DNA from: Candidatus Poriferisocius sp.
GTDB taxonomy: Bacteria; Actinomycetota; Acidimicrobiia; Acidimicrobiales; Bin134
DNA length: 64,000 nucleotides
Assembly: GCF_965202595.1 (NCBI RefSeq)
Contig: NZ_OZ241836.1
Location: 932,202 to 996,201 of the forward strand
Direction of reading: 5' to 3'
The translations under genes were made by a program, and so were the position numbers. The notes beneath the pieces are model-generated. The model searched no databases. It saw nothing but the letters and a program-made list of their open reading frames with translations, and was not told the DNA's origin. Positions 1-64,000 of the stretch are shown one piece after another (positions within the stretch are counted from its first letter, which is position 1; each line of letters starts with the position of its first letter).

Positions 1-773
1 CTTGACCATCTTAAAATCAGTGCCAGCTCCACTCGGGCCGGCGCTAAGACGATCCTTAGCCAAATCCTCACCAGCTCTGCTCAATGTATTAGCACGAATC
101 TCCACCTTATTGGAAGGTGTGCCACTCAACCTCACCGTGAAATTCGCATTCATCGTACCACTATCCCCCTCGGTCACACTCACATCACTGGACGAAATCA
201 CAAGAGGTGCCGCAGTAGGAGTGGCAGTAGCGGTGGCAGTAGGAGTGGGGGCACCAACTCTAACAAGAACGCCACCGGCTTCGGCAATTGCACTGCCGTA
301 CAGAGCATTTAGCATAGTTGCGCTATCGGCTGCGGCGAAAGCTATACCCGGACTTGTCACGGCAATGTCCGTAAAAGTAGCAGTCCAACCCCCACTATCG
401 TTTACATTAACAGTTGTATGCAGGCCTAAAGTATAATTACCTGCACAATTAATTACACCTAGGTTATCAATATTGCCATCGGTTGGCCAAGTGCAAGCAA
501 TAACCGTGACTTTTGGCACAGTCCACCCCGAACTGCTACTGACAGTAAAATTATGCTTACCAGCAGTCGCAACGGTCGCCGGAGTGGCAACGACAGTCTC
601 AACCCGCTTGGTGATCTTGTAGCCTCCTGTCAGCTGCCCCTGCGCCTGGGGACCTGAGACAACGACTGCCCCCCCCATGCCATGAGCGCCAGCGCGACCA
701 GCACCAGCAACCGCGCCATCCAGTTGACCCGGGTAAGGTCAAAAACGTGTGAACCAACTGTTTTCGTACCCAT
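1..773 (-). pseudogene. Secreted Calx-beta-like surface protein, 5' part; the gene continues past the left edge. The signal peptide is out of frame with the mature region.
   Basis: Not in the ORF track because it runs off the edge. One reverse frame is open from 738 to 1 and encodes ...VISSSDVSVTEGDSGTMNANFTVRLSG... A plausible signal peptide, MARLLVLVALALMAWGG (ATG 719-717, alternative ATG 773-771), lies in another frame. The two frames join only if the C8 run at 669-676 were C9. Confidence 0.55.
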
Positions 774-1050: not shown

Positions 1051-1311
1051 TCAGACGCGGATTACTCGCAGTTCATCAGTAGTCTCGCCGGCCAGCGCTG
1101 CCAGGTCATCTGCCAGTGCGGCATCGGCTTGATGCATCAGCACATCACGAACGAACCTATCCCGCGCCATCCACTGAGGCCTTTCCGCTACAGGCGTAAG
1201 TTCGGCCACCGGCCGCCCGTTCACAGTGATGGTTATGCGCTCTCCATCAGCTACGCGGTCAAGCAGAGCTCGAGTCTGGTTGCGCAACTCTCGGGATGCC
1301 GCCTCAAACAT
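1051..1311 (-). CDS. Phd/YefM-family type II antitoxin
   Basis: 86 aa. The sequence ...ELRNQTRALLDRVADGERITITVNGRPVAELTP... is typical of the Phd/YefM N-terminal fold. No intact toxin ORF lies downstream. Confidence 0.7.
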   Translation of the reverse strand: MFEAASRELRNQTRALLDRVADGERITITVNGRPVAELTPVAERPQWMARDRFVRDVLMHQADAALADDLAALAGETTDELRVIRV

Positions 1312-20130: not shown

Positions 20131-20216
20131 TCCTCGATGCCGGCTTCCTCATCTCGGTTGATCGCAGCGATCAACCGGACAGCTTCCATGTAAATCCGGA
20201 TCAAGCAACCTCGTAG
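20127..20216 (+). pseudogene. Truncated PIN (VapC-like) toxin remnant
   Basis: The GTG overlaps the antitoxin stop. VILDAGFLISVDRSDQ... matches a PIN N-terminus, but the frame stops after 29 codons, where the lower-GC R-M gene begins (20201). Confidence 0.5.
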
Positions 20217-22843: not shown

Positions 22844-22853
22844 TGGAGTACTC

Positions 22854-25800
22854 CTACCTGATCGGTTCACCGATGATTGGGGCATCTGCATACAACGCGT
22901 CAATCGCAGAGCCGATCCTCTCGGAAGCGTTTGTCATTGAATCGATCTCAACGTAACCCCATTTCCCCCACTCTCCGTGGTTGTTAACCGCCGTACACCA
23001 GTGATCCCGAGCCGTCTTGGCTTTGGCTGCGGTGGCTCCTGGGCTCTTCCGACCTCCTGATACCTCAATGATGAGCGTGCGGGTGAATGGGTCATCCTCG
23101 GGTTGAACGAGACGCACAAGGAAGTCGGGCAAGTAGCGGTGGCTGCGTCCCTCATGGACGTAGGGGATATCGAAGTCGAGGTGATCGTTCTTGACATACG
23201 ACGAGACTCGCTCCGTGTCACCTTCCAGGATGTCGGTGACGGTTTCCTCCCAGGTGTTACCCCTGAGTCCGTCGAGCACCACATAGTTGACCGGGGATCG
23301 CTCGGTCCCCACAACAACCTTGCGGGTGAGGAAGGAGACGTTGTCGGTTGATCCTCGGTTGTCGAATCGGCGAAACATTGGAAGAATTATCTCCTGTCGA
23401 GCATCCGGATATCGCACTATCGCGTTGTATACGGCTTCGGCAGCGGTAGCTTTGTATTGGGCCAGCAGAAGTACACCTGGGGGCGTGTCCGCCGCGAACG
23501 TTACTTTGTGCTCGAACCATCGTCGTGTTACATCGACAATAGCGGGGAAGAGCCACGGCTTGAGTGCTCCGTCATGGCCCGAGAAGAACCGTTGGAGCAC
23601 TTCGGCTGCCACCGCGTAGACAATGTGCTGTGAGCGGGTATTCCGCACTTGGGACAGGTCAACTTCCTCGGTTGCGCCGATCATGCCAGCCGATTCAACC
23701 CAAAGGGCGAGCGAGTCACGGTCGATATGAAGTGGCCTGGTGTGCTCGTGGTCAAACTCAATTGGCTCCTCCGGGACTTCTACCCGGTAGCCGTCGAGCT
23801 TTGGGAATACGATGCGGAGGTTTTGTCGTTCCGGCAGAGCCCTCACCTCGATTGCCGGCGGTGCGGGTTTCGATCCCGAAACAGTTCGATCCGTTGGTAT
23901 AAATACGAACGGCACCCCGTAGACATCGGCGTATTCGGGTTCGAACTTCCCCTCGGCATTTGCCTCGTAGCTACGCCGGCGCAAACCCCTACCAACGACC
24001 TGCTCACACAGAAGTTGGCTGCCGAACCGCCGGATGCCGAGGATGTGGGTGACGGTGTTAGCGTCCCATCCCTCGGTGAGCATCGAAACGCTCACCACAC
24101 ATCGGACGGTCTCCCCCAGCTTGCCCTTCTTCCCAACGGTGTTCATGACCTCACGGAGGAGATCCTCGTCGGTGAGTTTCTCAAGATCTGCCCCGGGATT
24201 CCTGCGGCTGTACTCGCGTTTGAACGTCTCGATTTCCTGGGAGACTGCTTGTTTGAAGTTGCTCTTGAGCGATTCGCCCGATTCTAGCTGAGCGGAGTCA
24301 ACGATGATCGTGGGAGGTCGATCCAGCCATGTGCCGTTCGCTACGTTGGTCAGCAAGTCCAGGTTTCCCTTGCGGATTCCTTTGCTGCCGTCCGGCAGCT
24401 CCACCTCCTGGCCGGCAATCCAGTCGAACACGAGCTTCGAGACCACCGTGTTGGGGCAGATCACAATCATCACCGGGGGTGGCTCGCCGTGCGGCTCGAG
24501 ATCCCGCTTCCAAACTTGGAACCGCTTCTCATAGCTCCGGTGCAAGGACTCCAGGGCTCCCTGTAACTCTACGGGCGGTATCCAACTCGAGTCCGATTCG
24601 GCATTCCTGCTCACACGCTTGGGTAACTTGTCACCGATGTGGTCCCACAGCCAGAGGTAGGTGGGTTGCTCGGTACTGACAACATCATCATCAACAGGCA
24701 CCCTTGGCACCTTCACAATGCCCGACTCGATGGCATCCATGAGCGAGAAGTCGCTGACCACCCATGGGAATATGTACCCCTCCTGGTACCCGGAGCCACC
24801 CAGGTAGTAGGGAGTGGCCGAAAGGTCGTAGATGATCTTTACACCTACGCGCCTGGATACTGCTTCGAGGCCCCGGAACCAGACGCGAGCACTTTCATTG
24901 CGCTCCTTGGCCTCCTTCCCAGGTTCGTCGGAACCAAGGGGGTTTGTCCTGATAGCAGTGGTGGGCCTCATCGTTGAGAACGAGAACCTCGCCCTTGCCG
25001 CGGCTCGAGAGATCGCGCATAACACGGTCTGCAACATCCTCATCGGTTTCGAGAAATGGGTTGGTTTCCTTGCCGGATGTCAGCAAGAGCCGTGTGTTTT
25101 TGGCAATACCTTGCATCTCCTTAGCGGTTTTTGGCAGGAACGTATGGTAGTTCGTGATGATGATTGCAGCATCGTCCAGCACCGTTCGAAGATCATGGGG
25201 AACGAGTCCACGCAGGTCGTAGTAGTTGGTTTCATCATGAGGTAGAAGCACCCTAAGCCGATCCCGAATGGTGATCCCTGGAGTCAGAACGAGAAATCTA
25301 TTGGTAAACCGTCGATCTCGTGGGCTGAAGGCTTTATTGGTGGTCTGCCACACAATTATCATACACATGACAACGGTTTTACCTGTTCCGGTGGCCATCT
25401 TCAGTGCGACCCGCGGCAGACCATTGTTGTGTTCATCGTTCTCCGGCCCGATCAGTGCCCGAAAGTCGGGTTCACCATGACGTCCTGCTACCTCTGCCAA
25501 GTAGATCGCGGTCTCAACCGCTTCTCTCTGACAGAAGAGAATCCGATCTTCACGTGTTTCGTCAGCCCAATGATTCAACAACTTCCGGCTGATCGGAGTA
25601 ACCCAGGTGTAGCCACGCACTCGCCATAATTCCACCCGATACCTGATGTCGTTGATAAGTTGATTACGTTCCCTACGTTCTCCAGTGGTGTCGAAGAGGT
25701 CTAGCATCTCCTGCTGTTGAGCCAACTCGGCAGGATCAATCCTGCGCCGACCCCGCTTCTTTCGCGACATCGGTACAGGGATGAAAGACTCACTTGGCCG

Positions 25801-25947
25801 CCTTCCTGTTTTTACTTCGCCAGTCGGGCCATTCGGGCCCAGCACAAAGTGAGCCTTCGGAGGTTCATACGGCGAGTTCAGAATAGGATTGCTGAGAGCG
25901 TCGGCAGGCTCCACCGATGGTAGCGACGGGTTCGATGCCTGGCTCAT
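22854..25947 (-). pseudogene. res: Type III restriction enzyme Res subunit (SF2 helicase + PD-ExK nuclease), frameshifted
   Basis: ATGTGKT and DEAH (LNDEAHHCY) lie in ORF 24895-25986. The helicase C-terminal part and the PDFLV...IIEVSGGRK nuclease lie in ORF 22854-25043. The two frames join if the G5 run at 24938-24942 were G4. Confidence 0.8.
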
Positions 25948-26045
25948 CAGGTTCCTCCGAGCAAACCTGTGTGATTCGACATTCAACCCATATTAGACGA
26001 AGGGTGTGACATCAGGGAGGAACTCGACGGGGTTGCCGCCTTCAA

Positions 26046-27779
26046 TCACCTGGTCAAGGGGATGTATGTGTGCGCTGGGGCATCCACGGCTGCGTGAGGC
26101 ATGGCCACAAGGTGGAGTCCTGAGCCGTGTTCATCAATGTGTCCAGCTATGAGATTCACCATCGTGCCCGCCAGCCCAACGGCATCTGCTGCCGACCCAT
26201 GGAAGGTTGGGGTGGAGCATCCACGCATGGCGATGAGTTCTTCGCCCTGCTCCGGCTTGTTCCAGAAAGTTTGGAAAGCTTCAAGCCTACCGGTGTTGAG
26301 GACCTCATGGTGGAGTTCCTCGTCGACCGCAGCGGGGCCGAGCCCGCTAGATTGACCTGATACGGCAATGAGTCCGAGCGAGGCAGTGGAGATGTCGGTT
26401 GAGACCGCGGCCAGAAGGGGGTGCTGGAGGTCCTTTGACGCTGCCCTGCTGAGGACGGCACCGAACGCCTCATTAACCGTTGCATCTATGATGAGATCGT
26501 GGTTGGCAACGTCCTCGGCTACCCGGCCTTGGCTGGGTTCGTACCTAGGGTTGACCTCAACATCGTCTGAGAGGGCTCGGAGCCGGGCGGCGAGTTGGCT
26601 TACTTTGGGAAAGCCAACATCGTCCTCGGTGTAGTTCTGCCGTACAAGCAGATCAGGTCCGACAGTGGCGAGATCCGTGACAGTCAGGTGCGAAACACCA
26701 GCGCGAACGAGCAATTCAGCAATCCAGGAACCTAGAGCACCACAGCCGCAGAGGAGTACTCGCTTGCCATGCAATCGTCGTACCGGACGCCTTATATCCC
26801 GCCGAAGAGCGGTTTCGGTGCGAAGGTCGGCGGTTCTGTACCAACTCAGTGGGACTGGGTTTTGGAGCGCGTTGTGGGGATCGTCTTGTGATGCTGCGAC
26901 TGCCGAGGAATATCGAGGGTCGATTTGAGCGGCAGCTAGATGATGCCCGGAGCCGGCATCTGCTGCCTCCCGTGAGACAGCTAGGAGCACAATGAGTGGT
27001 TTGCCTGGGCCATTCTTTGAGGCAGTACGGCGAAGCGCTCCCATAACGGCTTCGGGCTTGCTGCCTCCAGCATCGGCAACGCTTTGGAGTAGCTCCTGAA
27101 GGGTTGCTCCTGGGCCGCGTATCAGCCGTTTAGGTGAAGTCAAGGTGAGGATCCTGAGTTCGGTGTCATCGCGTGTGAAGAGATCGATTCGTTTCTCGCT
27201 TCGCATACGTGCAGAGGCGATATTGATGTTCTTGTTGAGATCTCCGAGGTGGGAGCGAACGACTGCGGTTGAGGCTTTGTGATCGTGGGGTTGGATGCCA
27301 CCAATCGGATGAAACAGGGCAGTAGTAGGATCAAAGTTGCCGTTGGCAAGTTTCTCAATGAAGTCCCAGATTCGTTCGATTGAACCCTTGATCCCTAAGT
27401 CAGGATGCCACTCCCTATGCGGATCTAGGTAGGTGCAGAGGCGGACACCATTGCGATTCCATAAGCCTCCTGCAAGAGTATGGGCACAACCGAGCCAGCG
27501 TTCATGATTGACTTCTATGAGCGGGGGGCAGTCGGGGAACATCTCTGGAAATCCGACGAAGAACTTTTCAGTGTCATGAAGTTCAATGTGCTCACTGTCA
27601 TTTCTGAAGTGAGACATCGATAATGTGATAGCTATGACTAGGCTCTTGTCTTGGAATAGGCAGGGAGCACCAAGTGATAATATGAAACCAGGATATTCAT
27701 GCGCAAGCTTATGCAAATCATAGATCGCGTCATATTGTTGTTTATTGCCGCGTTGTTGGCTAACAGAACGCCGACTCAT
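26046..27779 (-). CDS. cap2: CBASS Cap2-like E2/E1 fusion protein
   Basis: N-terminal E2-like FPEMFPDCPPLIEVNH...RLCTYLDPHREWHP. C-terminal ThiF/E1 Rossmann motif VLLCGCGALGSWIAELLVRAG, with a Cys in MRGCSTPTFHG. Its start overlaps the CD-NTase stop (ATGA). Confidence 0.75.
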   Translation of the reverse strand: MSRRSVSQQRGNKQQYDAIYDLHKLAHEYPGFILSLGAPCLFQDKSLVIAITLSMSHFRNDSEHIELHDTEKFFVGFPEMFPDCPPLIEVNHERWLGCAHTLAGGLWNRNGVRLCTYLDPHREWHPDLGIKGSIERIWDFIEKLANGNFDPTTALFHPIGGIQPHDHKASTAVVRSHLGDLNKNINIASARMRSEKRIDLFTRDDTELRILTLTSPKRLIRGPGATLQELLQSVADAGGSKPEAVMGALRRTASKNGPGKPLIVLLAVSREAADAGSGHHLAAAQIDPRYSSAVAASQDDPHNALQNPVPLSWYRTADLRTETALRRDIRRPVRRLHGKRVLLCGCGALGSWIAELLVRAGVSHLTVTDLATVGPDLLVRQNYTEDDVGFPKVSQLAARLRALSDDVEVNPRYEPSQGRVAEDVANHDLIIDATVNEAFGAVLSRAASKDLQHPLLAAVSTDISTASLGLIAVSGQSSGLGPAAVDEELHHEVLNTGRLEAFQTFWNKPEQGEELIAMRGCSTPTFHGSAADAVGLAGTMVNLIAGHIDEHGSGLHLVAMPHAAVDAPAHTYIPLTR

Positions 27780-28783
27780 CCGGCACGGCTTGCTGAGGTT
27801 GAAGCTGGTACGACTACTGGGGGTCCGAGTGGGGACGAAGCAGTCTCCACAGATTCTGTGGGTTCAAAGTCTTCACCGAAGATCTCCTGCCAGCGGCGCA
27901 TGGAAGATTTATAGTCAGAGTCGCGATAGGCGACTTTGATGAGAGTTGTGTAGTGATGCATCTTACTCCGGAATGAGTGGTAAATTGTGTCGTTCCATCG
28001 ATGATCAAAGGTGACGGGATTGCCTTGTGGGTCGCACGCGCCGGAAGGATCCTCAATAGTGGGTTTGTAGGGATTGGCTTGCAAGTAGTAATTGAGGTCA
28101 ATCATTACTTGGTAAAGAGTAGAGGGAACATCTCCATATCGTCCATTGTACTTGTTCTCAGTGGTGATGGTATCTCCGATTAGCTTGGTGATGATGATCG
28201 AAGGTACGTCAGGAAAAGCGTCGTGGTAGTCACGTAGGTACTTCACAAGCCGAATGACCTTACGCAGGTTGTTGTTGGCGGTTTCGTCACGGGACTGCAT
28301 CCATGAGATGAATCTCTCTGGGTTAGTGTCCTCCCAGTCGTTATCATCGCGGCAAACAATCACCTTCCGTCCGTCAGCAAGAGTAAGGTAAGGAACGATG
28401 TCCACATGGTGATTATTGGCGTAGATGACACGAACACACCTGGACTTAGTTTCATCGTCAATCATATCTCCATAAACTCCGTGGGTTCGTAGTGCCTGCT
28501 CGAGCCTTATGAGGTAGCTCCTCGGGTTAGCCGACCAGTTGACATCCTCTTCAAGGTGCAACAGGAAGTCAGCATCGAACTCAAGGTCATCGACCGGACG
28601 GATTATGGTGCGGTGGCTCCATGATCCTTGAGGGATCTTTGCAATAACTAGATGACCGATTATGTCAGAGTTAACCAGGGCCGCAAAGATGGCATCAACA
28701 TTGGTCTCCAATTGGTCGAGTCGGTGCTGGGGTAGGTTGACGACGTTGGTGAGGAACTTGTTGAAAGTGGGTGTGTGTCTCAT
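27776..28783 (-). CDS. cdnA: CD-NTase / SMODS nucleotidyltransferase
   Basis: Pol-beta NTase signature QGSWSHRTIIRP...DLEFDADFLL, with a third acidic residue in HHVDIVP. It also has LRKVIRLVKYLRD and a disordered tail ending ...SASRAG. Confidence 0.75.
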   Translation of the reverse strand: MRHTPTFNKFLTNVVNLPQHRLDQLETNVDAIFAALVNSDIIGHLVIAKIPQGSWSHRTIIRPVDDLEFDADFLLHLEEDVNWSANPRSYLIRLEQALRTHGVYGDMIDDETKSRCVRVIYANNHHVDIVPYLTLADGRKVIVCRDDNDWEDTNPERFISWMQSRDETANNNLRKVIRLVKYLRDYHDAFPDVPSIIITKLIGDTITTENKYNGRYGDVPSTLYQVMIDLNYYLQANPYKPTIEDPSGACDPQGNPVTFDHRWNDTIYHSFRSKMHHYTTLIKVAYRDSDYKSSMRRWQEIFGEDFEPTESVETASSPLGPPVVVPASTSASRAG

Positions 28784-29943
28784 GGCGGTGTGATCTCCAT
28801 AGCAAATCGATAGGTTTTGTTGATGAGGTCGTAAGTGACAAGGTTAGGGTGTATCCCCCATCCGATGCTGCGTCCTATGGTTATGGCGACGGAAACGGGA
28901 GCAGCGGCCAGAACGTGTAACCGTTCGAGGTTCTTGACACTGCTTTCGAGTTCTCCAAGAAGATCGCGAAGTATCCGCTCGAAAGACATCAATGTTGCTC
29001 TCGATGATACTGTTCCAACCTTAGGTGTTTCGCCTACTGGTTCGATTGTATATGTGGGTAGGGGAGCAAGCTGAGTGGGTGGAGTGTGGGTTGTTCCAGA
29101 GGCATTAACAACCAAAACAGCCTCGGTTGAAGTGTCTGAAGGTTCACTGTTACACCGCCATATGAATTCGACTGGCTTGGTTTTCTCGCCCCATATCCAA
29201 GGTGCGATTTCGCTACGAGGCTCGTAGATATCGCAATCAATTGTGTCGTCAAGGCGCGAGCCAAAGTAAACCAGCAAGGGCAGTCGAGCCATCGCGAAAA
29301 CGCTTATATGCTGAATCTCACCTTTTCTAATAGCTGGTCGAATGATACGATCAAGCTGTTCATCAATACGCCGCGCACAGTTTTGGTAATACAAATCAGT
29401 TGGAATTGACTCATCTGGGAAGTCCCGTAAGTCTATCTCAACACCTTGCCGGTCATAAGTAAATCGTAGACTGGGAAAGCGGTCCGAGGTTTTTAGTATG
29501 GCGTTTGCAGCGATCTTGGCAGATATTTCAACAGGGGCATCGCGGATGAGTGCGCTTAGGCGTACGATAGCGGTGCTTTCTGAACCCACCTGCTTGGTTG
29601 CAGCCCGAATACGAGCCTCGTGTTGATACTTGATCTTCTTCATCTTGCAAATCGGGAAAAGGTCTGCATGGGCTAGCTTGTCGACCTCATTGTGGCAATT
29701 TTCACACAAAAGAATGAGGTTGTCCGCACAGTCTCGTTCTTTAGGGGTCAGATTGCTGATACCTCGTGGGGAGTTGGCGGAGTTGGTCTGCCCCACAATG
29801 TGGGCCAATTCCCCCAATGTAAACTCCCGGTAGGATAAGCCCGACTCCAGTAGATAGCGATTGCAGAGCGCACAACGGCCCCCGGACCGTACCCACACAG
29901 CAAGCCGGACCTTCTCATCAATCTTGCGGCGGTTGCTCGTCAC
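28780..29943 (-). CDS. cap5: HNH endonuclease-SAVED effector (Cap5-like)
   Basis: HNH motif CALCNRYL...ELAHIVG...NLILLCENCHNEVDK, followed by a ~250-aa C-terminal sensor-like domain. Its stop overlaps the CD-NTase start (ATGA). Confidence 0.8.
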   Translation of the reverse strand: MTSNRRKIDEKVRLAVWVRSGGRCALCNRYLLESGLSYREFTLGELAHIVGQTNSANSPRGISNLTPKERDCADNLILLCENCHNEVDKLAHADLFPICKMKKIKYQHEARIRAATKQVGSESTAIVRLSALIRDAPVEISAKIAANAILKTSDRFPSLRFTYDRQGVEIDLRDFPDESIPTDLYYQNCARRIDEQLDRIIRPAIRKGEIQHISVFAMARLPLLVYFGSRLDDTIDCDIYEPRSEIAPWIWGEKTKPVEFIWRCNSEPSDTSTEAVLVVNASGTTHTPPTQLAPLPTYTIEPVGETPKVGTVSSRATLMSFERILRDLLGELESSVKNLERLHVLAAAPVSVAITIGRSIGWGIHPNLVTYDLINKTYRFAMEITPP

Positions 29944-55100: not shown

Positions 55101-58100
55101 TTAGTTGTTGCAGATGTCGTTGTTCAGATCGGCAACGCGGTCGCCGTAGTTGCCACGGCCCAGGCGGCGGCACTCCTCAGCGAGGGCGGCTCTGTACTCG
55201 TCGCGGTAGGTGGCGGCCAGGGTGTCGCCGGCTTTTTGGCGGGCTATGGCCTCACGCCGGGTGTAGGGCAGCGAGCACACATCGGCCACGCCGTCACCGT
55301 CGCTGTCGAGGGGGTAGGTGGTGGGCCCACCCAGGGAGCGGTTGGCGCACCAGGAAGGCCCGGTGATGGTGCCCGAGTAGTAGGGGCCCCCGTCGTTGGG
55401 AGGCGGGAACCCCGGTGCGGCCAACTCATCACCCCCGCAAGCCTCGTTGCCGGGCTGGTTGGCGCACTCGGCGTTGACGAGATCCCGGTACAGGTCTGGG
55501 TACCGGTTGGCCAGGGTGATCACCGCGTTTTGTCGGGCTATGGCCTCACGGCGGGTGTAGGGCAGCGAGCAAATATCGGCCACCCCATCCCCATCGCTGT
55601 CGAGGGCGAACAAGCGGACCCCACCCAAAGAGAACTCCGCACAAAAACTCGGACCGGTGACCGGACCGGAGTAATAAACCTGATCACTGGGGGTGTCACC
55701 ACCAGGAGCATCGTCGCCGGAGGTGATGGTGGACGATGTGCCTGCGGAGCCGGCACCCACTGCGTTGATGGCTCGCACCTCGAACACATAGGCCACCGGA
55801 CCGGTACCAGTATTAGTACCGGTTATGACCGTGCTCATCGTGGCCGCCCCAACATCGGCCCACTCACCAAAACCAGCGCTCTCGATGCGGGTACGCCACT
55901 GCCAACCCGTCACCGCAGAACCCCCATCGGCACCCGCCATCCAAGTAACGGTGATGGTCCCATCGGTAGCCGTCGCTGTGACGCTGGGAGCAGCAGGTAC
56001 CGCAGCAGGTGTCGCCGACACCGAAGCCACAGCACCAGCACCCATAGCGTTCCGGGCCCTTAGGTGGAACGCGTAGCTAGTGCCATTGACCAGATCCGAC
56101 ACCGGCACCGAGGTGGCATCATCCATCCCGGCCAAATCCACCCACTGGCCTTCATCGACCCGCAAATGCCAACCCGTCACCACAGACCCACCATCGGTGC
56201 CCGGTGTCCACGACAAAGTCACCGTTTCGTCACCGGGCGTGGCGGTAACCATGGGAGCATCAGGCACCGTGGCCGGCATCGCAGTGTCAACCCCAACGGC
56301 ACCGGCACCCATCACGTTTCGGGCTCGAACCTGGAAGGTGTAGGTGGTGCCGTTGGCGAGATTCTGAACCGGCACCGAGGTGGTACCCGCAGGATAACTA
56401 GCCCACTGGTCGGTACCGGTGCGCAACTGCCAACCCGTCACCGCAGAACCACCATCACCACCCGGGGTCCAGCTCACCGTCACCGCCTTGTCACCAGCCA
56501 TGGTGGTCACCGCCGGCGCATCAGGCACCGTCGCCGGCATCACCGTCGCAGTACCAGCGGGGCCGGCACCAATCCTGTTCAGCGCTCTGACCTCAAAGGT
56601 GTAGGCAACACCATTGGTGAGACCATCGATGTCGCGGGTGGTGGTAGCGGCAGGCACATCAACCCAAGCCCCGTAACCAGCGGTGCCGGTTTTCATCCGG
56701 TACTGCCACCCGGTAACCGCAGCAGCCCAGTTGGACTCCCCCGCCACCCCGCCAGCACCAGCGGCCCAGTTCAAAGTGACCTTCATATCCGCAGCGGTGG
56801 CGGTCACCGACGGGGCGGGGGGCACCGCCGATGGGGTGACAGGATCGGACTCGAACGCCGCCCCAATCACCTGAACATTGGTGGTCACCGCCCGCACCTG
56901 GAACGTGTAAGCCCGCCCGTTAGCGAGATCATCCACCACCAGGCTACGCGCCGCCGCCCCACCGGTTACCGCGGTCCACGAACCGTAACCCCCACCATCG
57001 GTTTTCATACGATACTGCCAACCCGTAACCGTGCTACCCCCCGTGTTCGGTGCATCCCACGACAACGTGACCCGACCATCACCAGCAGTCGCAGTTAATG
57101 AACCGCCAGCGGGTGCGCCGATCGGTGTTATCGGACCAACCACCCCCGCGGCGGGGCCGGCACCGAACTGGTTCACCGCTCGCACCTCGAACTCATAGGC
57201 CACCCCGTTGGTCAGGCCCCGCACCGGCACCCCTGCTGATTCGGCCAAATGGCGGGCCGGTGGGGTGATACGAGCTCCCAACGATTGCCACGCATCAAAA
57301 CTGCTGCTACCGCTGCGACGCACCCGAACCTCATAACCCAAAACCGCAGAACCACCCTGAGGGGCCAACAAAGTGACCCTCACCCCACCATCGGCCGGTG
57401 TCACTGCCACCTGGCGAGGCGCAGTGGGCGTATTGCCAGGGGTAACCGGCAACGACTGCGCCGGCGCGCCCTTGTTGACAGTGGTAGTCACAGTATCCAA
57501 AACACCCTCGCTGTCGAGGGCCATCAAAGCGTTCACCGCCCGCAGGCGGAACCGGTACGTCGAGCCGTTGGTCAAACCTTTTATCACCGCTTGAGTCGTC
57601 GACGGCCCACTACCCGGAACCGGAGTCCACTCATCGTCCCAACCACTCCATGAGGTATTCGCGCCCGCAGCTTTTGAATCCTTGATGTATTCCCAGCGGA
57701 TGATCGGCGGACCCCCCGAACCCACCGACATCCACGACAGGGTTACCTGACCATCACCACCGGCAGCAGCCAACCCTGCCGGGGCGGGGGGTGCCACACC
57801 CGGTATCACCACCTTGTCGGGGTAAACATCGGCAGCTTTGTTGTGCAAACCGGCACCGTTGGAATACAACGCAGGACCCGCCAACCAACCGGTGCCGTGC
57901 CGGTTCCGCGCCCTGACCCGGAACTCGTAGGCCACCCCATTGCGCAAACCCGACACCACGATCCCGTCGCCAGCCACATCGGCGCTGTTCGCAGCCCGCC
58001 CCGCGAACCTTTGACCAACGTTGGACACCGCCCACGGCGACCACTCACCACCGGCGGGACGATACGAATACTCCCAAACCGTCTCACCAGAATAAGTGCC

Positions 58101-60431
58101 ATTGGTGTTGGTGAAAGCATTCTCATAACCAATTACAAAACGACCACCGCGGCTTACAAACCTTGCTTTGGGTCGAACGATGTTCAACTTCACCTGACCA
58201 TTACCCGGCACCGCCAACACCTCCGGACGAGCGGAGGATGAACCCGGCCAACCATCAGCACCGGGCAAAGGCGGAGCCCCGAACACAAACGGCACCGACT
58301 CGACCGCATAACCCGCCCCCACATCAGACACCGTCCGGGTCCTGAACGTGTAAGTCTCCCCAACCCGGAAAGTGACCTCATCGAAACGTTCGGTTGCTCT
58401 ACCCAAGCTACCCTGTTGAGTAACCCATCCACCCCACGGCCCATCACCGACCTTCCACGACCACTCAAACCGCAAACGCTTACCACCATGAAGATAACTC
58501 AAAGGAGAGGTTACCCCCATGTGAGGGCGACCACCGGTGCGGGGATCACCAGTATAACCCCTCAAAACCGCCGTCAACGCCATCGAGGGAACACCCTTAG
58601 CAATGTTCACCCTCACAACTCCAGACTCCAAACCCAAACCCCTGGCATTCTCCGCCCGCAACACGAAAAAATGATCCCCCACCTTCAAACTCCCCACACA
58701 CAACCTAGCAAAACACGAAGTTGCATTCTCGTGATCCAAGGTCCGATTCCTGGGCAGCTTCACCGTCGACAACCCCGCACACATCGGATCCAACCCCGCT
58801 GTGTTATCACACAAATCCCGCCACAACGCGCTGGTCAACCCGTCCACCGTTGTCGCATGTTTCAACTGCCACTTCGTCACCGGAGAACCACCATCGGAAC
58901 CCGTCCACGACAAAACCACCTGATGCAACCCTATCGCGTAATCCGACACCATCTCCGCGGACACCGCCGGTGCCGCCGGAACCGTCCCCGGATAAACAAC
59001 ACCCGTCTCAGCCACCGCACCCGCACCAACACTACTCACCGCCCGCACCCGGAACCAATACCCCACACCCGCCGTCAAACCCGTAACCGTAAACTCTCTG
59101 GTCGTGTAGTCACCCGGTATCGCCACCCAACCACCCCACTCACCATCACTAGCCCGCACCGAATACTCATAACGCCTAAACCCATCACTATTTATTAAAT
59201 TAGTCGGCTGGCGCCACCTCAACGTTACCGACGACTCCGTCACCTTCGTCGTCTCCAACTCACGAGGCACCTCCAACACCGTACCCAAATACACGAACCC
59301 GGAACGCGCCCCCACACCCCCGCCCAACGCGCTGACAGCCCGCACCTCAAACAAATAACTCTCGGTATTATCCAAACCAGTCACAAAATAAGACCTGGCC
59401 CCGGCCCCACCAGGAACCCGGTTCCAACCAGCTTCCGCCAAAGTGCTGTAATTACCGTCCGACCACCGAACTTCCCAACCCGTCACCGGCGAGCCAACCA
59501 CCCCCGGCGGCTGCCACGACAACAACACCGACTTATCCCCCGGTGTCACCACAAAGTTACGAGGAGCACCCGGCGCACCCCCCACTACCACCGGCCCCAC
59601 CTCACCTGTGGCACCGTTGCCATGCTTGTTAACCGCCCGCACCCGGAACGAATACCCAACATCATTAACCAAACCCAAAACCACGAACGAATCACGATCC
59701 CCAGCCGAACTACCATCATCGGCCATCACCGACCACCCCGACCACTTTCCATCACCTTGTTTGGTCGCGTACTCGTACCGCAAAATAGGAGCAAACCCCG
59801 ACCCCGCCACCTCACCGGAAGCCTTGGTCCACTTCAACTCCACCTGAGAATCCCCAGCAACCGCCCGCAAACCCCCCGGCACCGGCGCAACACTGGACAC
59901 CAAATGCCCATCCACCGGACTCATACTCAAAATCTGGCCCACTCCCGCAGCGTTCACCGCCCTTAAGAAGAACCGGTACCTACTACCAACCGTCAAACCC
60001 GACACCACCACCGACCGAGCAGCCCCACCACCGGGCACCGGCCGCCACACAACCCCACTACGATCCCCCGAAGTAGGCGCTAAACTCGTAGAAGTATCCA
60101 CCACCCTGTCCTCCGGCGGATCCCACGTGGTCCCATCATCGGTCGATTGCGAAAACACATACTCATAACCCACAACCCCCACAGTGGCCGGCGGCGGCCC
60201 CCACGACAACCGCACCGCACCACCACCCAACACCACCACCTGCGGCGACGACAGAGTATTCGGCACACTTTGCGCACCCGCACCCCCCACCCAAACCAAC
60301 ACCGACCCCAACAACCCCACCAAAACCAGGAGCCCAAAACAGGGCAGCCCTAAACGACTACCCCCCCCCCCCCCCCGGCTAGAACCCAAACCAACCCGCA
60401 AAAAACTCAACATAACCCCCACTATAACCAC
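55101..60431 (-). CDS. Giant secreted protein: signal peptide, ~14 fibronectin type III repeats, and two C-terminal Cys-containing DSDGDGVAD (TSP3/Ca-binding-like) modules
   Basis: The FN3 signature (Y.F.VRA.N..G.G) recurs 14 times. The C-terminus carries two copies of ...YYSG..TGPS.C...LDSDGDGVAD.CSLPYTRREAIARQ... The N-terminus ...RLGLPCFGLLVLVGLLGSVLVWVGGAGAQS is a signal peptide. Confidence 0.85.
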   Translation of the reverse strand: MVIVGVMLSFLRVGLGSSRGGGGGSRLGLPCFGLLVLVGLLGSVLVWVGGAGAQSVPNTLSSPQVVVLGGGAVRLSWGPPPATVGVVGYEYVFSQSTDDGTTWDPPEDRVVDTSTSLAPTSGDRSGVVWRPVPGGGAARSVVVSGLTVGSRYRFFLRAVNAAGVGQILSMSPVDGHLVSSVAPVPGGLRAVAGDSQVELKWTKASGEVAGSGFAPILRYEYATKQGDGKWSGWSVMADDGSSAGDRDSFVVLGLVNDVGYSFRVRAVNKHGNGATGEVGPVVVGGAPGAPRNFVVTPGDKSVLLSWQPPGVVGSPVTGWEVRWSDGNYSTLAEAGWNRVPGGAGARSYFVTGLDNTESYLFEVRAVSALGGGVGARSGFVYLGTVLEVPRELETTKVTESSVTLRWRQPTNLINSDGFRRYEYSVRASDGEWGGWVAIPGDYTTREFTVTGLTAGVGYWFRVRAVSSVGAGAVAETGVVYPGTVPAAPAVSAEMVSDYAIGLHQVVLSWTGSDGGSPVTKWQLKHATTVDGLTSALWRDLCDNTAGLDPMCAGLSTVKLPRNRTLDHENATSCFARLCVGSLKVGDHFFVLRAENARGLGLESGVVRVNIAKGVPSMALTAVLRGYTGDPRTGGRPHMGVTSPLSYLHGGKRLRFEWSWKVGDGPWGGWVTQQGSLGRATERFDEVTFRVGETYTFRTRTVSDVGAGYAVESVPFVFGAPPLPGADGWPGSSSARPEVLAVPGNGQVKLNIVRPKARFVSRGGRFVIGYENAFTNTNGTYSGETVWEYSYRPAGGEWSPWAVSNVGQRFAGRAANSADVAGDGIVVSGLRNGVAYEFRVRARNRHGTGWLAGPALYSNGAGLHNKAADVYPDKVVIPGVAPPAPAGLAAAGGDGQVTLSWMSVGSGGPPIIRWEYIKDSKAAGANTSWSGWDDEWTPVPGSGPSTTQAVIKGLTNGSTYRFRLRAVNALMALDSEGVLDTVTTTVNKGAPAQSLPVTPGNTPTAPRQVAVTPADGGVRVTLLAPQGGSAVLGYEVRVRRSGSSSFDAWQSLGARITPPARHLAESAGVPVRGLTNGVAYEFEVRAVNQFGAGPAAGVVGPITPIGAPAGGSLTATAGDGRVTLSWDAPNTGGSTVTGWQYRMKTDGGGYGSWTAVTGGAAARSLVVDDLANGRAYTFQVRAVTTNVQVIGAAFESDPVTPSAVPPAPSVTATAADMKVTLNWAAGAGGVAGESNWAAAVTGWQYRMKTGTAGYGAWVDVPAATTTRDIDGLTNGVAYTFEVRALNRIGAGPAGTATVMPATVPDAPAVTTMAGDKAVTVSWTPGGDGGSAVTGWQLRTGTDQWASYPAGTTSVPVQNLANGTTYTFQVRARNVMGAGAVGVDTAMPATVPDAPMVTATPGDETVTLSWTPGTDGGSVVTGWHLRVDEGQWVDLAGMDDATSVPVSDLVNGTSYAFHLRARNAMGAGAVASVSATPAAVPAAPSVTATATDGTITVTWMAGADGGSAVTGWQWRTRIESAGFGEWADVGAATMSTVITGTNTGTGPVAYVFEVRAINAVGAGSAGTSSTITSGDDAPGGDTPSDQVYYSGPVTGPSFCAEFSLGGVRLFALDSDGDGVADICSLPYTRREAIARQNAVITLANRYPDLYRDLVNAECANQPGNEACGGDELAAPGFPPPNDGGPYYSGTITGPSWCANRSLGGPTTYPLDSDGDGVADVCSLPYTRREAIARQKAGDTLAATYRDEYRAALAEECRRLGRGNYGDRVADLNNDICNN
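60361..60376 (-). repeat. C16 (coding-strand G16) homopolymer inside the first 25 codons of the FN3-array gene
   Basis: I counted 16 consecutive c at 60361-60376. They are read as CGG GGG GGG GGG GGG GGT (RGGGGG). Confidence 0.95.
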
Positions 60432-60492
60432 ACCCTCCCCCCGCGCAAGTACCCCCTACAAAACCGTCACGACCACCAGCAGAGCTAGCCCA

Positions 60493-60524
60493 CTGTCAAC
60501 AACCTCCGTAGGCGCTACAACTAG
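60493..60524 (-). repeat. Dispersed repeat E copy (reverse), 60-90 bp upstream of the FN3-array gene start
   Basis: ctgtcaacaacctccgtaggcgctacaactag matches the right arm at 54941-54969 and the reverse complement of 30286-30316. Confidence 0.8.
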
Positions 60525-60559
60525 GGTGCAGCTTTGAACACAGGAAAGGAGGAGGTCTC

Positions 60560-61594
60560 ATGGAGTATCGCACTTTGGGGGCGAGTGGGGTCCGGGTGAG
60601 CGCGTTGTGCCTGGGAGCCATGATGTTCGGCCCGGCGGGGAACGACGACGAGGCCGAGTGTGCGGCCATGATCCACCGAGCCCTCGATTCGGGGATCAAC
60701 TTCATCGATACCGCCGACCGCTACAGCCTGGGTATATCGGAGGAGATCGTCGGGCGAGCCATCCGGAACCGCCGGGATGAGGTGGTGCTTGCCACCAAGT
60801 TCTACGGGCCGATGGGTGAGGACATCAACAGCCAGGGAGGGTCCCGCCGCTGGGTTACCCGAGCGGTGGAGGACAGCCTGCGCCGCCTCGGTACCGACTA
60901 CATCGACCTGTACCAGATGCATCGGCCCGATCCCCACACCGATTTCGGCGACACCCTGGCTGCGCTCACCGACCTGGTGCGGGCGGGCAAGATCCGCATG
61001 ATCGGCACCTCCACCTTTCCGGCCGAACTGATCGTGGAGGGCCAGTGGGCAGCCGAGCGCCGGAGTCTGGAGCGGGTCCGCTGCGAGCAACCCCCCTACT
61101 CCATTTTCACCCGGGAGATCGAGCGGGCGGTGCTCCCCGCCTGCCAGTCGTACTCCATGGGGGTGATCGTGTGGAGCCCACTCAATGGCGGGTGGCTCAC
61201 CGGCAAGTACCGCAAGGATGCCGAGTGGCCGGACAACTCCAGGGCTACCCGCAATCTGGTAAGTGCCAAGCGCTGGGACCGGGCCAACCCGGTGGTGCAG
61301 CACAAGCTGGATCTGGTGGAAGAGTTGGATGGGCTGTCCGCCGAGTTGGGCTGCTCGATGGCCGGTCTGGCCTATGCCTTCACCCTGGCCCACCCGGCGG
61401 TTACCTCCACCATCATCGGCCCCCGCACCCCCCAGCAGCTCGATGCCGCCCTCGATTACGCCGACTTGCGCCTCTCCCACGATGTCCTGGACCGGATCGA
61501 CGACCTGGTTCCCCCCGGCACCGACCTCAACCCCGACGACGCTTTCTACGTTCCCCCCGCCCTCGCCGATGCCACCCTCAGAAGGAGGATGTGA
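60560..61594 (+). CDS. Aldo/keto reductase
   Basis: MEYRTLGASGVRVSALCLGAMMFG...IDTADRY...IDLYQMHRPD... Confidence 0.9.
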   Translation: MEYRTLGASGVRVSALCLGAMMFGPAGNDDEAECAAMIHRALDSGINFIDTADRYSLGISEEIVGRAIRNRRDEVVLATKFYGPMGEDINSQGGSRRWVTRAVEDSLRRLGTDYIDLYQMHRPDPHTDFGDTLAALTDLVRAGKIRMIGTSTFPAELIVEGQWAAERRSLERVRCEQPPYSIFTREIERAVLPACQSYSMGVIVWSPLNGGWLTGKYRKDAEWPDNSRATRNLVSAKRWDRANPVVQHKLDLVEELDGLSAELGCSMAGLAYAFTLAHPAVTSTIIGPRTPQQLDAALDYADLRLSHDVLDRIDDLVPPGTDLNPDDAFYVPPALADATLRRRM

Positions 61595-61631
61595 CCTTTC
61601 CCCGGATGGGTTGCTCCTAAACGGATAGTTC

Positions 61632-64000
61632 CTAGACGGATCGTTCCCCGGAGCGTTCTATGGCTCGGGCATCGGTGCCCAGGTAGGAGGCTATGACCAG
61701 GGGGTCGTTGCGGACGGCCTCCGGTGATCCCTCGGATATGACCGATCCCGCTTCCAGGCAGTACACCCGGTCGCTGATGCTCATTACCAGCGGCATGTCG
61801 TGCTCGATCACCACCACCGCCGCGTCCAGCTCGGTCTGAATGCGCCGGATGAGGGGTCCAAAGGCCTCGCTCTCCCTCTGGGCGACCCCACCGGTGGGCT
61901 CGTCCAGCAACAGCACCTTGGCATCCACCGCCAGCAGGCTGGCCAGCTCCACGATGCGCCGGGTGCCGGTGGACAGGTTGGATATGAAATGGTCGGCGTA
62001 GCGACCCAGGCCCACGAAGTCCATGAGGTTGTCCACCTCGAGGCGCTTGCGCCGCTCCTGGCCGGGCGATGGCGGTATGCCCAGGAGCGACGGGACCAGC
62101 AGGGAGCGATCCCGGGCTTCCATCGCCACCATCAGTGCTTCCCGAACCGTCAGGTCGGGATACAGCTTGGCGTGCTGGAATCCCCGGCCCAGGCCACCAC
62201 GGTGGCGCCGGTGGGGCGGTAGCCGGGAGACATCCTGACCCAGAACCTCAACCTGGCCGCCGAACGGTACGAAACCGCTGATGGCGTTCATCAGGGTTGA
62301 CTTGCCCGCTCCGTTGGAGCCGATAAGCCCGACCAGCTCTCCCTGATGGACTTGGATGGAAACATTGTCCACCGCCACCTTGCCGCCGAAGTGCACGTGG
62401 CATCCCCGGACCGCCAGCCACGGATGCCCCGGCTCCGCCTTCACGGTGCGCGCGCTGGTTACCGGCACCGGCTTGGCTGCCGCCGGAACCGGATCGGGCA
62501 CATCCCGAGCCGCCAGCCGATGGTCGGCCAGCCCCAGCAGGAAGTCCCGCAGCTTGTATAGGAGCTGCATGATCCCGCCGGGGAAGTACATGAGCAGGAG
62601 CAGCAGGCCCACCCCGGACGTAAGCAGCCGGACCTCATCCGAAGCCCCGAATATGGCGGGGATGCCCTTGACCCACAGCACCCCCAACAGCGGCCCGGCA
62701 ATCGACCCCAGCCCTCCGATGATGGCTATGGCGATGACATTGATGGATTCATTGGCGTTGAACAGCACCTGGGGATTGATGGTGGGCTCGCCGGTTATGA
62801 TCAGCCCCCCGCCCAGAGCGGCCAAACCCCCGGCCAGCGTGAACGAGATGAGCTTGATTCGGCTGCCCGACACGGTGGATGCCGCCGCCATGTCCTCGTT
62901 GTCGCGCACCGCGATCATCATCCTCCCGATCCCGGTACGGCGCAGGTGGGCGACCATTCCCACGGCCAGGGCCAGCAGCACCAGCACCAGGAAGAAGTAC
63001 GACTTGCGGGAAGCGGTGAAGTCGAACGGCCCCCACACCGGCGGGATCACCTTGGGGGTGTTGGTGCTCCCCTGGGTGAAGACATCCTGCACGAAGATCC
63101 ACGACATGGCGGCGATGGCGAAGGCCAGCGTGGTCACCGCCAGCATCAGGCCCTTCACCCGCAACACGGGTACCCCGATGATGAACGCGGTGATCATGCC
63201 CGCGGCCACCGCGATCACCATGGCCACCCCCCAGGGCAGGTCGAGCGACCAGTCCCCCCAGTCGAACGGGATCGGTATGTCCCCGTTCTCGGTCAGGGCC
63301 ACCACGGTCAGGCCCCCCACACCGGCAAAGGCGAACTGGCCCAGGGAGAGCTGCCCGGCCCAGCCGGTGAGCATCGACACCGACAGGGCGACCAGCGCGA
63401 AGCCCAGGATGCGGGTCCAGGTGTACAAGTTGGAGTTCTTGGTGAGGAACACTCCGACCAGCACCAGCGCCCCGAACAGGACTGCGAACCCGAATCGGGA
63501 CAGGTTGCGGATGTACCACAAGCTTTGCAGCCGTTCGGGAACAGCCTTCACCTTGGGCGACAGCGACCAGTCCCCCTCGTCCTGCCGGCCCCGGCGGGCG
63601 AAGAGCACCGTAATGACCAGGATGGCGATGAAGAAGATGATGTCAACCGCCTCCCGGAGCTCCCGGTCCACGTTGCCCTGGAACAAGCGCTGGAAGATGC
63701 CCAGGCCGATGCCGGCGATCAGCGTGACCCAAAGTGACCGCATGCGGGCGATCAGCGCCACCAGCAGCACCCGTAGCAACAGCCCGGGGCCGAGGCTGGC
63801 GGTTCCCGCGTCGGCCGCGCTGACCCGGAAGGGGGCCAGCAGGATCAGGGTCACCCCGGCCAGCGCTCCCCCGATGGTCCACACCATGGTGGACACCCGC
63901 CGCACGCTTATGCCGAACAGCCTTCCGGTATCGGCGTTGTCGGCCGAAGCCCGGATGGCCAGCCCGAACCGGGTCCGGCTCAGGAACAGGGCCAGGAGCG
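61632..64000 (-). CDS. Fused branched-chain amino acid ABC transporter permease(s)/ATP-binding protein (LivH/LivM-LivG-like); the 5' end lies beyond the window
   Basis: The C-terminal ABC domain has GLIGSNGAGKST, LSTGTRRIVELA and LLLDEPTGG. Upstream of it are polytopic permease segments. The frame stays open past 63905 to the window edge (...RTRFGLAIRASADNADTGRLFGISVRR...). Confidence 0.85.
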   Translation of the reverse strand, partial: LLALFLSRTRFGLAIRASADNADTGRLFGISVRRVSTMVWTIGGALAGVTLILLAPFRVSAADAGTASLGPGLLLRVLLVALIARMRSLWVTLIAGIGLGIFQRLFQGNVDRELREAVDIIFFIAILVITVLFARRGRQDEGDWSLSPKVKAVPERLQSLWYIRNLSRFGFAVLFGALVLVGVFLTKNSNLYTWTRILGFALVALSVSMLTGWAGQLSLGQFAFAGVGGLTVVALTENGDIPIPFDWGDWSLDLPWGVAMVIAVAAGMITAFIIGVPVLRVKGLMLAVTTLAFAIAAMSWIFVQDVFTQGSTNTPKVIPPVWGPFDFTASRKSYFFLVLVLLALAVGMVAHLRRTGIGRMMIAVRDNEDMAAASTVSGSRIKLISFTLAGGLAALGGGLIITGEPTINPQVLFNANESINVIAIAIIGGLGSIAGPLLGVLWVKGIPAIFGASDEVRLLTSGVGLLLLLMYFPGGIMQLLYKLRDFLLGLADHRLAARDVPDPVPAAAKPVPVTSARTVKAEPGHPWLAVRGCHVHFGGKVAVDNVSIQVHQGELVGLIGSNGAGKSTLMNAISGFVPFGGQVEVLGQDVSRLPPHRRHRGGLGRGFQHAKLYPDLTVREALMVAMEARDRSLLVPSLLGIPPSPGQERRKRLEVDNLMDFVGLGRYADHFISNLSTGTRRIVELASLLAVDAKVLLLDEPTGGVAQRESEAFGPLIRRIQTELDAAVVVIEHDMPLVMSISDRVYCLEAGSVISEGSPEAVRNDPLVIASYLGTDARAIERSGERSV

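Follow-up and report, generated by a model that had tools for sequence, protein, structure and literature searches.

A poly-G tract in the signal-peptide codons of a giant FN3-repeat gene as a candidate phase-variation switch in a sponge-symbiotic actinobacterium

The window analysed here is a 64,000-nucleotide stretch of the genome of Candidatus Poriferisocius sp. (contig NZ_OZ241836.1, positions 932,202 to 996,201). Its minus strand carries a giant FN3-repeat gene of 1,770 codons from the ATG (55101–60413, within the open reading frame (ORF) 55101–60431), whose product has at least nine fn3 domains and, at its C terminus, a duplicated Cys-rich module bearing DSDGDGVAD motifs. Near its 5' end, 16 consecutive G on the coding strand (60361–60376, minus strand; C16 on the plus strand), which we call tract B, form the R-G5 codons of a signal-peptide n-region. 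As judged from the sequence comparisons described below, this G16 run is likely to be the hypermutable part of a phase-variation switch of the slipped-strand (simple-sequence-repeat) type in the gene for this giant secreted protein. The mechanism is of a known kind, the lineage and the gene family are new, and the recurrence of a two-tract layout across a large family is unusual. We know of no large family described as having both a promoter and a coding tract in every member. An earlier note on this DNA had read the run as a contingency locus. That reading is supported by G16 and G17 at the same locus, by paralogs with 10–17 G and by apparently intact ORFs in OFF copies; the note caught only part of the system, which also includes a promoter tract in most paralogs and a family of about 24 genes.

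Tract B is the longest homopolymer of the window. The runner-up is a C8, runs of 9–15 are absent and the counts of shorter runs drop about threefold with each extra base (C5, 103; C6, 34; C7, 4; C8, 1). A model of independent, identically distributed bases predicts 8e-4 G/C runs of at least 16 per 64 kb, while in first-order Markov simulations (n = 100) the maximum run averaged 10.4 and was 16 at most. The position of the tract is a stronger argument against chance than its length alone, because all G/C runs of at least 9 in 214 kb of related loci lie at the 5' ends of FN3 paralogs. At 16 nt the run also exceeds the length from which G/C runs are hypermutable (roughly 8 or more).

The run is in frame as assembled, as the earlier note had stated, with ORF 55101–60431 (minus strand) reading through it. 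Codons (CGG GGG GGG GGG GGG GGT) and hydropathy likewise agree with its placement of the encoded RGGGGG between the initiator region and the hydrophobic core. Tract B is flanked by two Arg residues of the n-region, the distance from the ATG (60413) is 37 nt and the 22-residue hydrophobic core lies downstream. When the tract was resized in silico, lengths of 1 mod 3 (10, 13, 16 and 19) left the frame open (ON). Lengths of 2 mod 3 ran into a TAG directly after the tract (OFF); the immediate stop foreseen for one extra G is indeed what G17 gives (...GGG TAG). Lengths of 0 mod 3 (G15 and G18) read GTA GTC GTT TAG and are OFF as well. The stop codons of both OFF registers are supplied by TAGTCGTTTAG, directly 3' of the tract (60350–60360, minus strand). 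Directly 5' of it, a conserved TAG within TCTAGCC (60379–60381, minus strand) closes the downstream frame at 0 mod 3 lengths. The TAG codons on either side are kept in every aligned paralog copy. A gain or loss of one G thus shifts the register and leads to a stop within 0–3 codons, a placement suited to switching expression.

Tract lengths were compared within the species of the window (species 1), for which the window and eight contigs together supplied twelve 5' ends. The most direct comparison is with L001, an independent ENA metagenome contig (2× coverage) reached via the neighbouring aldo-keto reductase gene. L001 carries G17, an OFF register, and over 3,815 nt it shows 0 other differences from window positions 60166–63979. 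Across the twelve 5' ends, tract B measures 16, 17, 10, 12, 16, 15, 16, 13, 10, 16, 14 and 11 G, so that eight different lengths (10–17) are found among near-identically flanked copies. A comparison of tract length in related genomes had been proposed in the earlier note, and among these paralogs and assemblies the length does vary between conserved flanks. A second tract in the promoter, tract A, reads G6AG3 (window and L001), 10, G4AG12, 13, 16, 11, none, 13, 13, 16 and 11 in the same twelve ends, and the −35/−10 spacers across the species-1 copies range from 16 to 22 nt. Scans of JGI metagenomes with the conserved 5' motifs gave no hits in one case and five unrelated chance matches in the other.

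The source genome and the ENA contigs can be compared locus by locus. Over the aligned 1,373–1,783 residues, proteins from the ENA contigs match source-genome paralogs with 100% identity. The N-terminal register nevertheless differs between the assemblies at five of the eight comparable loci with identical products, one locus differing by two nucleotides (G14, inferred, in P0006 versus G16 in L010). At the remaining three the registers agree, and two of these are OFF (P0010, G12; P0137, G11, equal to L017b). Both of these OFF lengths are found in both assemblies and OFF lengths are therefore reproducible. Furthermore, the two sets of gene calls for the source genome suggest that about 14 of its 24 paralogs have ORF calls unconnected to the canonical ATG.

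Several points weigh against a switch. The comparison contigs are long-read (metaMDBG-style) metagenome assemblies of 2–4× coverage, and an isolated ±1 difference in a run of 16 G is by itself weak evidence that may be technical. The sample of 5' ends is biased towards ON, five having been chosen for their ON look via long N-termini. The states of the source-genome paralogs are inferred from gene calls and not from DNA, and gene callers truncate in-frame genes too (P0001, and P0028 in a second species). FN3 genes on low-coverage contigs contain frameshifts, for example at about 7337–7383 of L009 (GATGATGGGGGGTTCT), where G6 stands in a place for which the frame implies G5 (GGT GAT GAT GGG GGT TCT), and FN3 paralogs are fragmented on a 161-kb ENA contig (P0123, P0125, P0133, P0135 and P0136). 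Such frameshifts are either homopolymer errors or real lesions, and they set the error background. The promoter scan of the window copy remained below threshold, with a −35-like hexamer that matches at only 3/6 positions, and no anchor motif was recognised in the C-terminal analysis of the FN3 protein.

If the technical points were decisive, the true copies would all be in frame (10, 13 or 16 G) and encode a short poly-Gly stretch, the OFF lengths being ±1 long-read errors. The coverage of the comparison contigs, the G5-to-G6 frameshift within the L009 gene and the fragmented paralogs of the 161-kb contig would fit such an artefact, and each OFF length seen (17, 12, 15, 14 and 11) is one step away from an ON length. 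On the other hand, two OFF states recur in independent assemblies, the difference between P0006 and L010 amounts to two nucleotides and for roughly half of the paralogs of the complete 3.04-Mb assembly the called ORF does not connect to the ATG. Moreover, faithful replication of a G16 run is unexpected in any bacterium. We consider an artefact very unlikely.

The copies in the OFF register on the comparison contigs are L005 (G12), L007b (G15), L017a (G14) and L017b (G11), and each is followed by an uninterrupted ORF. In the two complete cases this ORF is 1,734 and 1,765 amino acids long; the other two reach the end of their contigs without a stop. As far as their reading frames tell, these copies are not the product of pseudogene decay.

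The reading of tract B as coding depends on the start codon. The probable start is the ATG at 60411–60413 (minus strand; MLSFLRVGLGSSRG5SRLGL...), which is supported by the invariance of GGGGGTTATG and of the 37-nt distance between ATG and tract in nine aligned 5' ends. The motif GGTTATAGT-GGGGGTT-ATG is invariant in the same nine ends, which come from unlinked loci (one copy, L005, has TATAAT), and the indels found 3' of the tract among them, +3 and −9, are multiples of three. ENA gene callers place the starts of P0004 and P0132 at the same ATG. The signal-peptide coding region spans 47 codons (60273–60413, minus strand), with R6, R13, R20 and the Gly run in the n-region, LGLPCFGLLVLVGLLGSVLVWV as h-region and a c-region GGAGA followed by Q. 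It was judged by hydropathy, register analysis and comparison with relatives. Relatives that have no tracts possess an ordinary signal peptide at the equivalent site, ending in ...LLATLLTPLSTASA before Q, an end also read as ...RARRRVTTWAALGVLALLATLLTPLSTASA before Q.

RefSeq starts the window gene (P0001) after the tract, at V56 (GTG, 60266–60264). This start was rejected: it would delete a signal peptide that is conserved in frame across the family, tract-free species included. RefSeq (PGAP) starts most paralogs past the signal peptide (MGAQ..., MPNT...), also for the in-frame window copy, and a second gene caller chooses longer starts that are mutually inconsistent. The database records of the family conceal the export signal and the tracts. 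The earlier note had allowed for a true start downstream of the tract, in which case the G run would be a 5' untranslated region or promoter element. The NCBI annotation of most paralogs agrees with that, as does the homologous family of a second species, which carries poly-G in the promoter and not in the ORF. Yet a start at V56 would drop the hydrophobic core and the AxA-Q site that are conserved in frame family-wide, it would leave the invariant 37-nt distance and the +3 and −9 indels unaccounted for, and a 1,721-residue FN3 protein lacking an export signal is implausible. A non-coding tract is thus extremely improbable, and with an invariant ATG and the signal peptide of tract-free relatives the start appears to lie upstream.

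Upstream of the ATG, a −10 box TATAGT lies at a distance of 7 nt (60421–60426, minus strand) within the essentially invariant GGTTATAGT (TATAAT in L005). The −35-like hexamer TTGCGC (60443–60448, minus strand) overlaps an invariant CTTG and corresponds to TTGACG in L008 and to TTGACC/TTGACG in the second species. Tract A occupies the spacer between the two (60433–60442, minus strand). In the window copy it is degenerate, G6-A-G3, with the promoter spacer fixed at 16 nt; paralogs have an uninterrupted G10–G16. With the tract interrupted, variation at the promoter level has probably been lost from the window copy. The promoter scan scored TTGACG-16-TATAGT of paralog L008 at 10/12. Because the −10 box lies 7 nt from the ATG and there is no properly spaced Shine–Dalgarno sequence (SD), a geometry known from leaderless mRNAs of actinobacteria, the transcript is probably leaderless and begins at the ATG (60413) or close beside it. 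A known RNA element or a hairpin-based mechanism was dropped as a candidate after an Rfam search on both strands of 60150–60600 returned zero matches and the DNA around tract B showed no notable hairpin (z = −0.8).

Further upstream, a block of about 60–70 nt that includes a perfect TTGACA, GTAGCGCCTACGGAGGTTGTTGACAGTGGGCTAGCTCTGCTGG..., is near-exact in three paralogs at unlinked loci with differing neighbour genes (window 60455–60520, minus strand; L004 9880–9960; L005 9775–9850). The remaining paralogs have other sequence there. The block may be a second promoter or a regulator site, or it may mark the boundary of the duplicated unit.

The tracts are distributed unevenly among relatives. 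Species 2 has a 3.37-Mb genome with tandemly arranged paralogs, whose proteins are about 45% identical. Its signal-peptide codons are free of long tracts. The poly-G is in the promoter in this species: G18, G17 and G17 fit precisely into the interval from TTGACC/G to GATGAT/GATACT, 6 nt upstream of the ATG. The promoter scan scored TTGACG-17-GATGAT. Truncated N-termini in species 2 were also considered as OFF states and rejected: the DNA is in frame with the upstream ATG, and the truncations are gene-caller choices. A third species (3.81 Mb) and a more distant metagenome-assembled genome have plain signal peptides and no tracts at the homologous 5' ends, and the genes of the third species are preceded by an SD-like AAGGAG. 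A scan of genome contigs with an N-terminal alignment gave only two distant loci, both free of tracts. With tract-free 5' ends in the third species and the distant relative, and tracts at two sites in the others, the tracts are therefore derived and have been maintained across a clade.

A steep 5'-to-3' gradient in synonymous-site composition runs along all species-1 paralogs (window 57500–60413, minus strand; L004, L005, L007, L008 and L010). C occupies 0.08–0.12 of third codon positions in the first 1.5 kb, rising to about 0.2 over the following 1.5 kb and to about 0.4 in the final 1.5 kb, compared with 0.38–0.50 in neighbouring housekeeping genes. G and T at third positions are raised correspondingly, and the GC skew falls to −0.46 on the plus strand. 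The homologous genes of species 2 and 3 lack the gradient. Among singletons of six paralogs, C>T changes (0.138 per site) exceed G>A changes (0.088 per site) in the first 1.8 kb, and the 3' end is similar. With so mild an excess we do not claim ongoing strand-specific C-to-T mutation as the cause; the bias looks largely ancestral.

The gradient bears on a non-adaptive reading, in which G runs would be by-products of compositional bias and the out-of-frame copies pseudogenes-to-be. The G/T-rich synonymous sites in the first 1.5–3 kb of all species-1 paralogs (third-position C of 0.08–0.12) would favour G runs, one paralog is split (P0021/P0127) and a second secreted gene at the left edge of the window, with a G8 tract, has no known ON allele. 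A mutational hotspot does not, however, explain why the tracts occupy two fixed positions with conserved flanks and flanking stops in all paralogs, nor why no G/C run of at least 9 occurs elsewhere in these G-rich genes. No further lesion was seen in the ORF stretches read from OFF copies (about 5 kb in the two complete cases), and species 2 has G17–18 at the promoter site without the compositional bias. We accord this reading little probability.

The switch would then operate as follows. Transcription, driven by the TATAGT 7 nt upstream, would start at the ATG (60413) or right beside it, and the ribosome would read 12 codons before entering tract B. With 10, 13, 16 or 19 G the frame would pass through 3–6 glycines of the n-region into the 1,770-residue protein (ON), while one G more or less would bring a conserved TAG within 0–3 codons and yield no exportable protein (OFF). 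Slippage during replication of 16 G is expected to alter the length frequently and reversibly, so that each lineage would flip the gene stochastically among three registers, one ON and two OFF. An intact tract A may set promoter strength through the −35/−10 spacing. The window copy, with its fixed 16-nt spacer and G16, would be both transcribed and translated. With the device present in about 24 paralogs, a population would express shifting subsets in many combinations, conceivably as a defence against phages or host phagocytes through variation of surface or host-interaction proteins.

OFF copies might also be leaky. RNA-polymerase slippage or ribosomal frameshifting could restore the frame in some transcripts, or an internal TTG could serve as the start at 2 mod 3 lengths, which would turn the switch into a rheostat. 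Slippage during transcription of long homopolymers is well established. With G17, a TTG-started ORF with a signal-peptide-like beginning, MVWVLAG(n)SRLGL..., exists in the window, and gene callers report a TTG-type start for P0006, P0137, P0149 and P0154. The internal TTG, however, has no SD and would sit inside what is probably a leaderless mRNA, and at 0 mod 3 lengths the TAG directly before the tract makes any upstream start impossible. We regard such leakiness as unlikely; it is in any case compatible with, and not exclusive of, a slipped-strand switch.

A search with the full protein found an identical RefSeq protein of Candidatus Poriferisocius sp. in the source genome (3,037,168 bp), which holds 22 more paralog clusters at 52–84% identity. 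Cluster listings put the FN3 family of this genome at about 24 genes, and other Poriferisocius genomes have comparable FN3 families. The product may be a secreted, candidate surface or host-interaction protein. Calcium-binding-motif matches in the C-terminal module were only sub-threshold in Pfam. Proteins with fn3 domains are among the 'eukaryotic-like' proteins that are enriched in sponge-symbiotic Acidimicrobiia (PMC11706023), in a study in which phase variation is unmentioned, and our full-text literature search found no paper that connects sponge symbionts with phase-variable repeats.

The paralogs often stand head-to-tail in tandem arrays of 3–4 genes (L006 1–21473; L007; L011 4908–20000; L017). 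Along the window protein the most similar paralog shifts about every 100 residues (identity 0.76–0.97), a mosaic that is compatible with gene conversion. A more far-reaching reading would take the poly-G tracts as the visible part of a surface-diversification system, in which the G-over-C skew would promote R-loops or G-quadruplexes and these in turn gene conversion; with stochastic ON/OFF changes at two levels added, the outcome would be antigenic variation of the pilE/VSG kind in a mutualistic sponge symbiont. It is suggested because the nearest paralog changes along the gene and the first 2–3 kb are G-over-C skewed on the non-template strand (synonymous C of about 9% versus 38–50% in housekeeping genes). 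We consider this quite unlikely.

The second secreted gene, at the left edge of the window (1–773, minus strand), is of the Calx-beta type and has T-rich third codon positions. It contains a G8 tract at 669–676 (minus strand), directly after the signal-peptide-like MARLLVLVALALMAW. The tract is out of frame as assembled (OFF), and G9 or G6 would restore the frame, which bears out the earlier description of the same arrangement in the OFF register. A homolog search with the frame-repaired protein recovered only its own truncated annotation of 323 residues in the same genome (P0168, Calx-beta), and no ON allele. Next to this gene lies a Phd/YefM-type antitoxin gene (1051–1311, minus strand); in the tandem FN3 array of species 2, too, a weak Phd/YefM match lies between paralogs (L006 15630–16019). 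Elsewhere in the window, a defence island at 20201–29943 lies in a stretch of lower GC content (0.50–0.59, compared with about 0.65). It encodes a DNA methylase and a ResIII helicase, resembling a type III restriction–modification system, and a set similar to a cyclic-oligonucleotide-based antiphage signalling system (CBASS), with a SMODS/DncV-like cyclase, a ThiF/Prok-E2 protein and a SAVED-HNH effector.

Contingency loci are viewed as a hallmark of host-adapted pathogens and vertebrate commensals. The same logic is now encountered in an uncultivated actinobacterial sponge mutualist, which suggests surface variation as in pathogens. Should the tracts indeed switch in vivo, a population of the symbiont would be a mosaic of cells that express different subsets of about 24 giant secreted proteins. 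Escape of the symbiont from sponge phagocytosis or from phage, selection of variants by the host and the reason for the expansion of the family would then become testable. The genes under such control would be those of the FN3 'eukaryotic-like' proteins that comparative genomics has tied to sponge symbiosis (PMC11706023). In automatic annotation these genes are cut short or given misplaced starts, and their export signals, hence their likely location, are missed in databases.

The likenesses to the opa, Bifidobacterium, Gardnerella and Bordetella systems considered here are to be read as functional analogies and not as homology. The earlier statement that this layout is rarely documented in high-GC actinobacteria needs qualification, with precedents in Bifidobacterium (PMC9187656), Gardnerella nanH3 (10.1101/2020.09.16.300947) and Mycobacterium tuberculosis (PMC10334774). 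In Bifidobacterium breve, genes for sortase-dependent pili carry an intragenic G10–12 between the Sec signal and the remaining pilin, and it was verified experimentally that the G11 tract is heterogeneous in single-colony cultures, with G11 and G12 coexisting (PMC9187656). Both systems are actinobacterial, place a 5' poly-G in the gene of a secreted surface protein and lead annotation to split or truncate the gene. The B. breve tract, in contrast, is shorter, occurs once per operon in two operons per genome and has no promoter counterpart, while about 24 genes are concerned here. The sialidase gene nanH3 of Gardnerella has a poly-C of 8–14 directly after the signal peptide, with length variation seen by clone sequencing (10.1101/2020.09.16.300947). 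This, too, is an actinobacterial homopolymer about 100 nt into the ORF, by the signal peptide, of which only some lengths give full-length protein, but nanH3 is a single enzyme gene and not a repeat-protein family. In both precedents the tract follows the signal peptide; here it lies in the n-region, upstream of the hydrophobic core, with the same logic. M. tuberculosis shows homopolymer phase variation, for example at the 7C of glpK (PMC10334774, bioRxiv 10.1101/717272). It shares with the present case a high-GC actinobacterial background and frameshifts at G/C runs, which in M. tuberculosis are reversible. Its tracts, unlike those described here, are of 7–9 nt, are scattered over metabolic and other genes, involve no surface family and do not lie at signal peptides.

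Tract A, present in paralogs and the sole tract in species 2, sits between a −35-like hexamer and a −10 box (spacers of 16–22 nt) and thereby resembles the fim, vlp and porA switches. Promoter-spacer homopolymers switch Neisseria porA and opc and the vlp family of Mycoplasma hyorhinis, vlp being a multigene family with one tract per promoter; porA has both promoter and coding tracts, but is a single gene. The fim2, fim3 and fimX genes of Bordetella have a C-stretch in the promoter (PMC1891110), and tract lengths of up to G18 resemble the C19 of B. bronchiseptica fim3. What differs from these systems is that the spacer tract of the window copy is interrupted (G6AG3) and that, for the FN3 genes, an effect of spacer length on transcription is a prediction.

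In Neisseria, up to 12 opa paralogs carry CTCTT repeats among their leader-peptide codons (PMC5354566, PMC3745409). The opa genes are likewise a multi-copy family with a repeat within the signal-peptide codons of each member, ON/OFF states that depend on the frame and combinatorial expression, the last two being predicted from sequence in the present case. They differ in having a pentamer in place of mononucleotide G and eight-stranded β-barrels in place of 1,770-residue FN3 arrays, whereas the genes described here belong to an actinobacterial sponge symbiont and mostly carry a promoter tract as well. Having neither the CTCTT pentamer nor the Opa β-barrel, the FN3 family is an analogue of opa and not a member of it.

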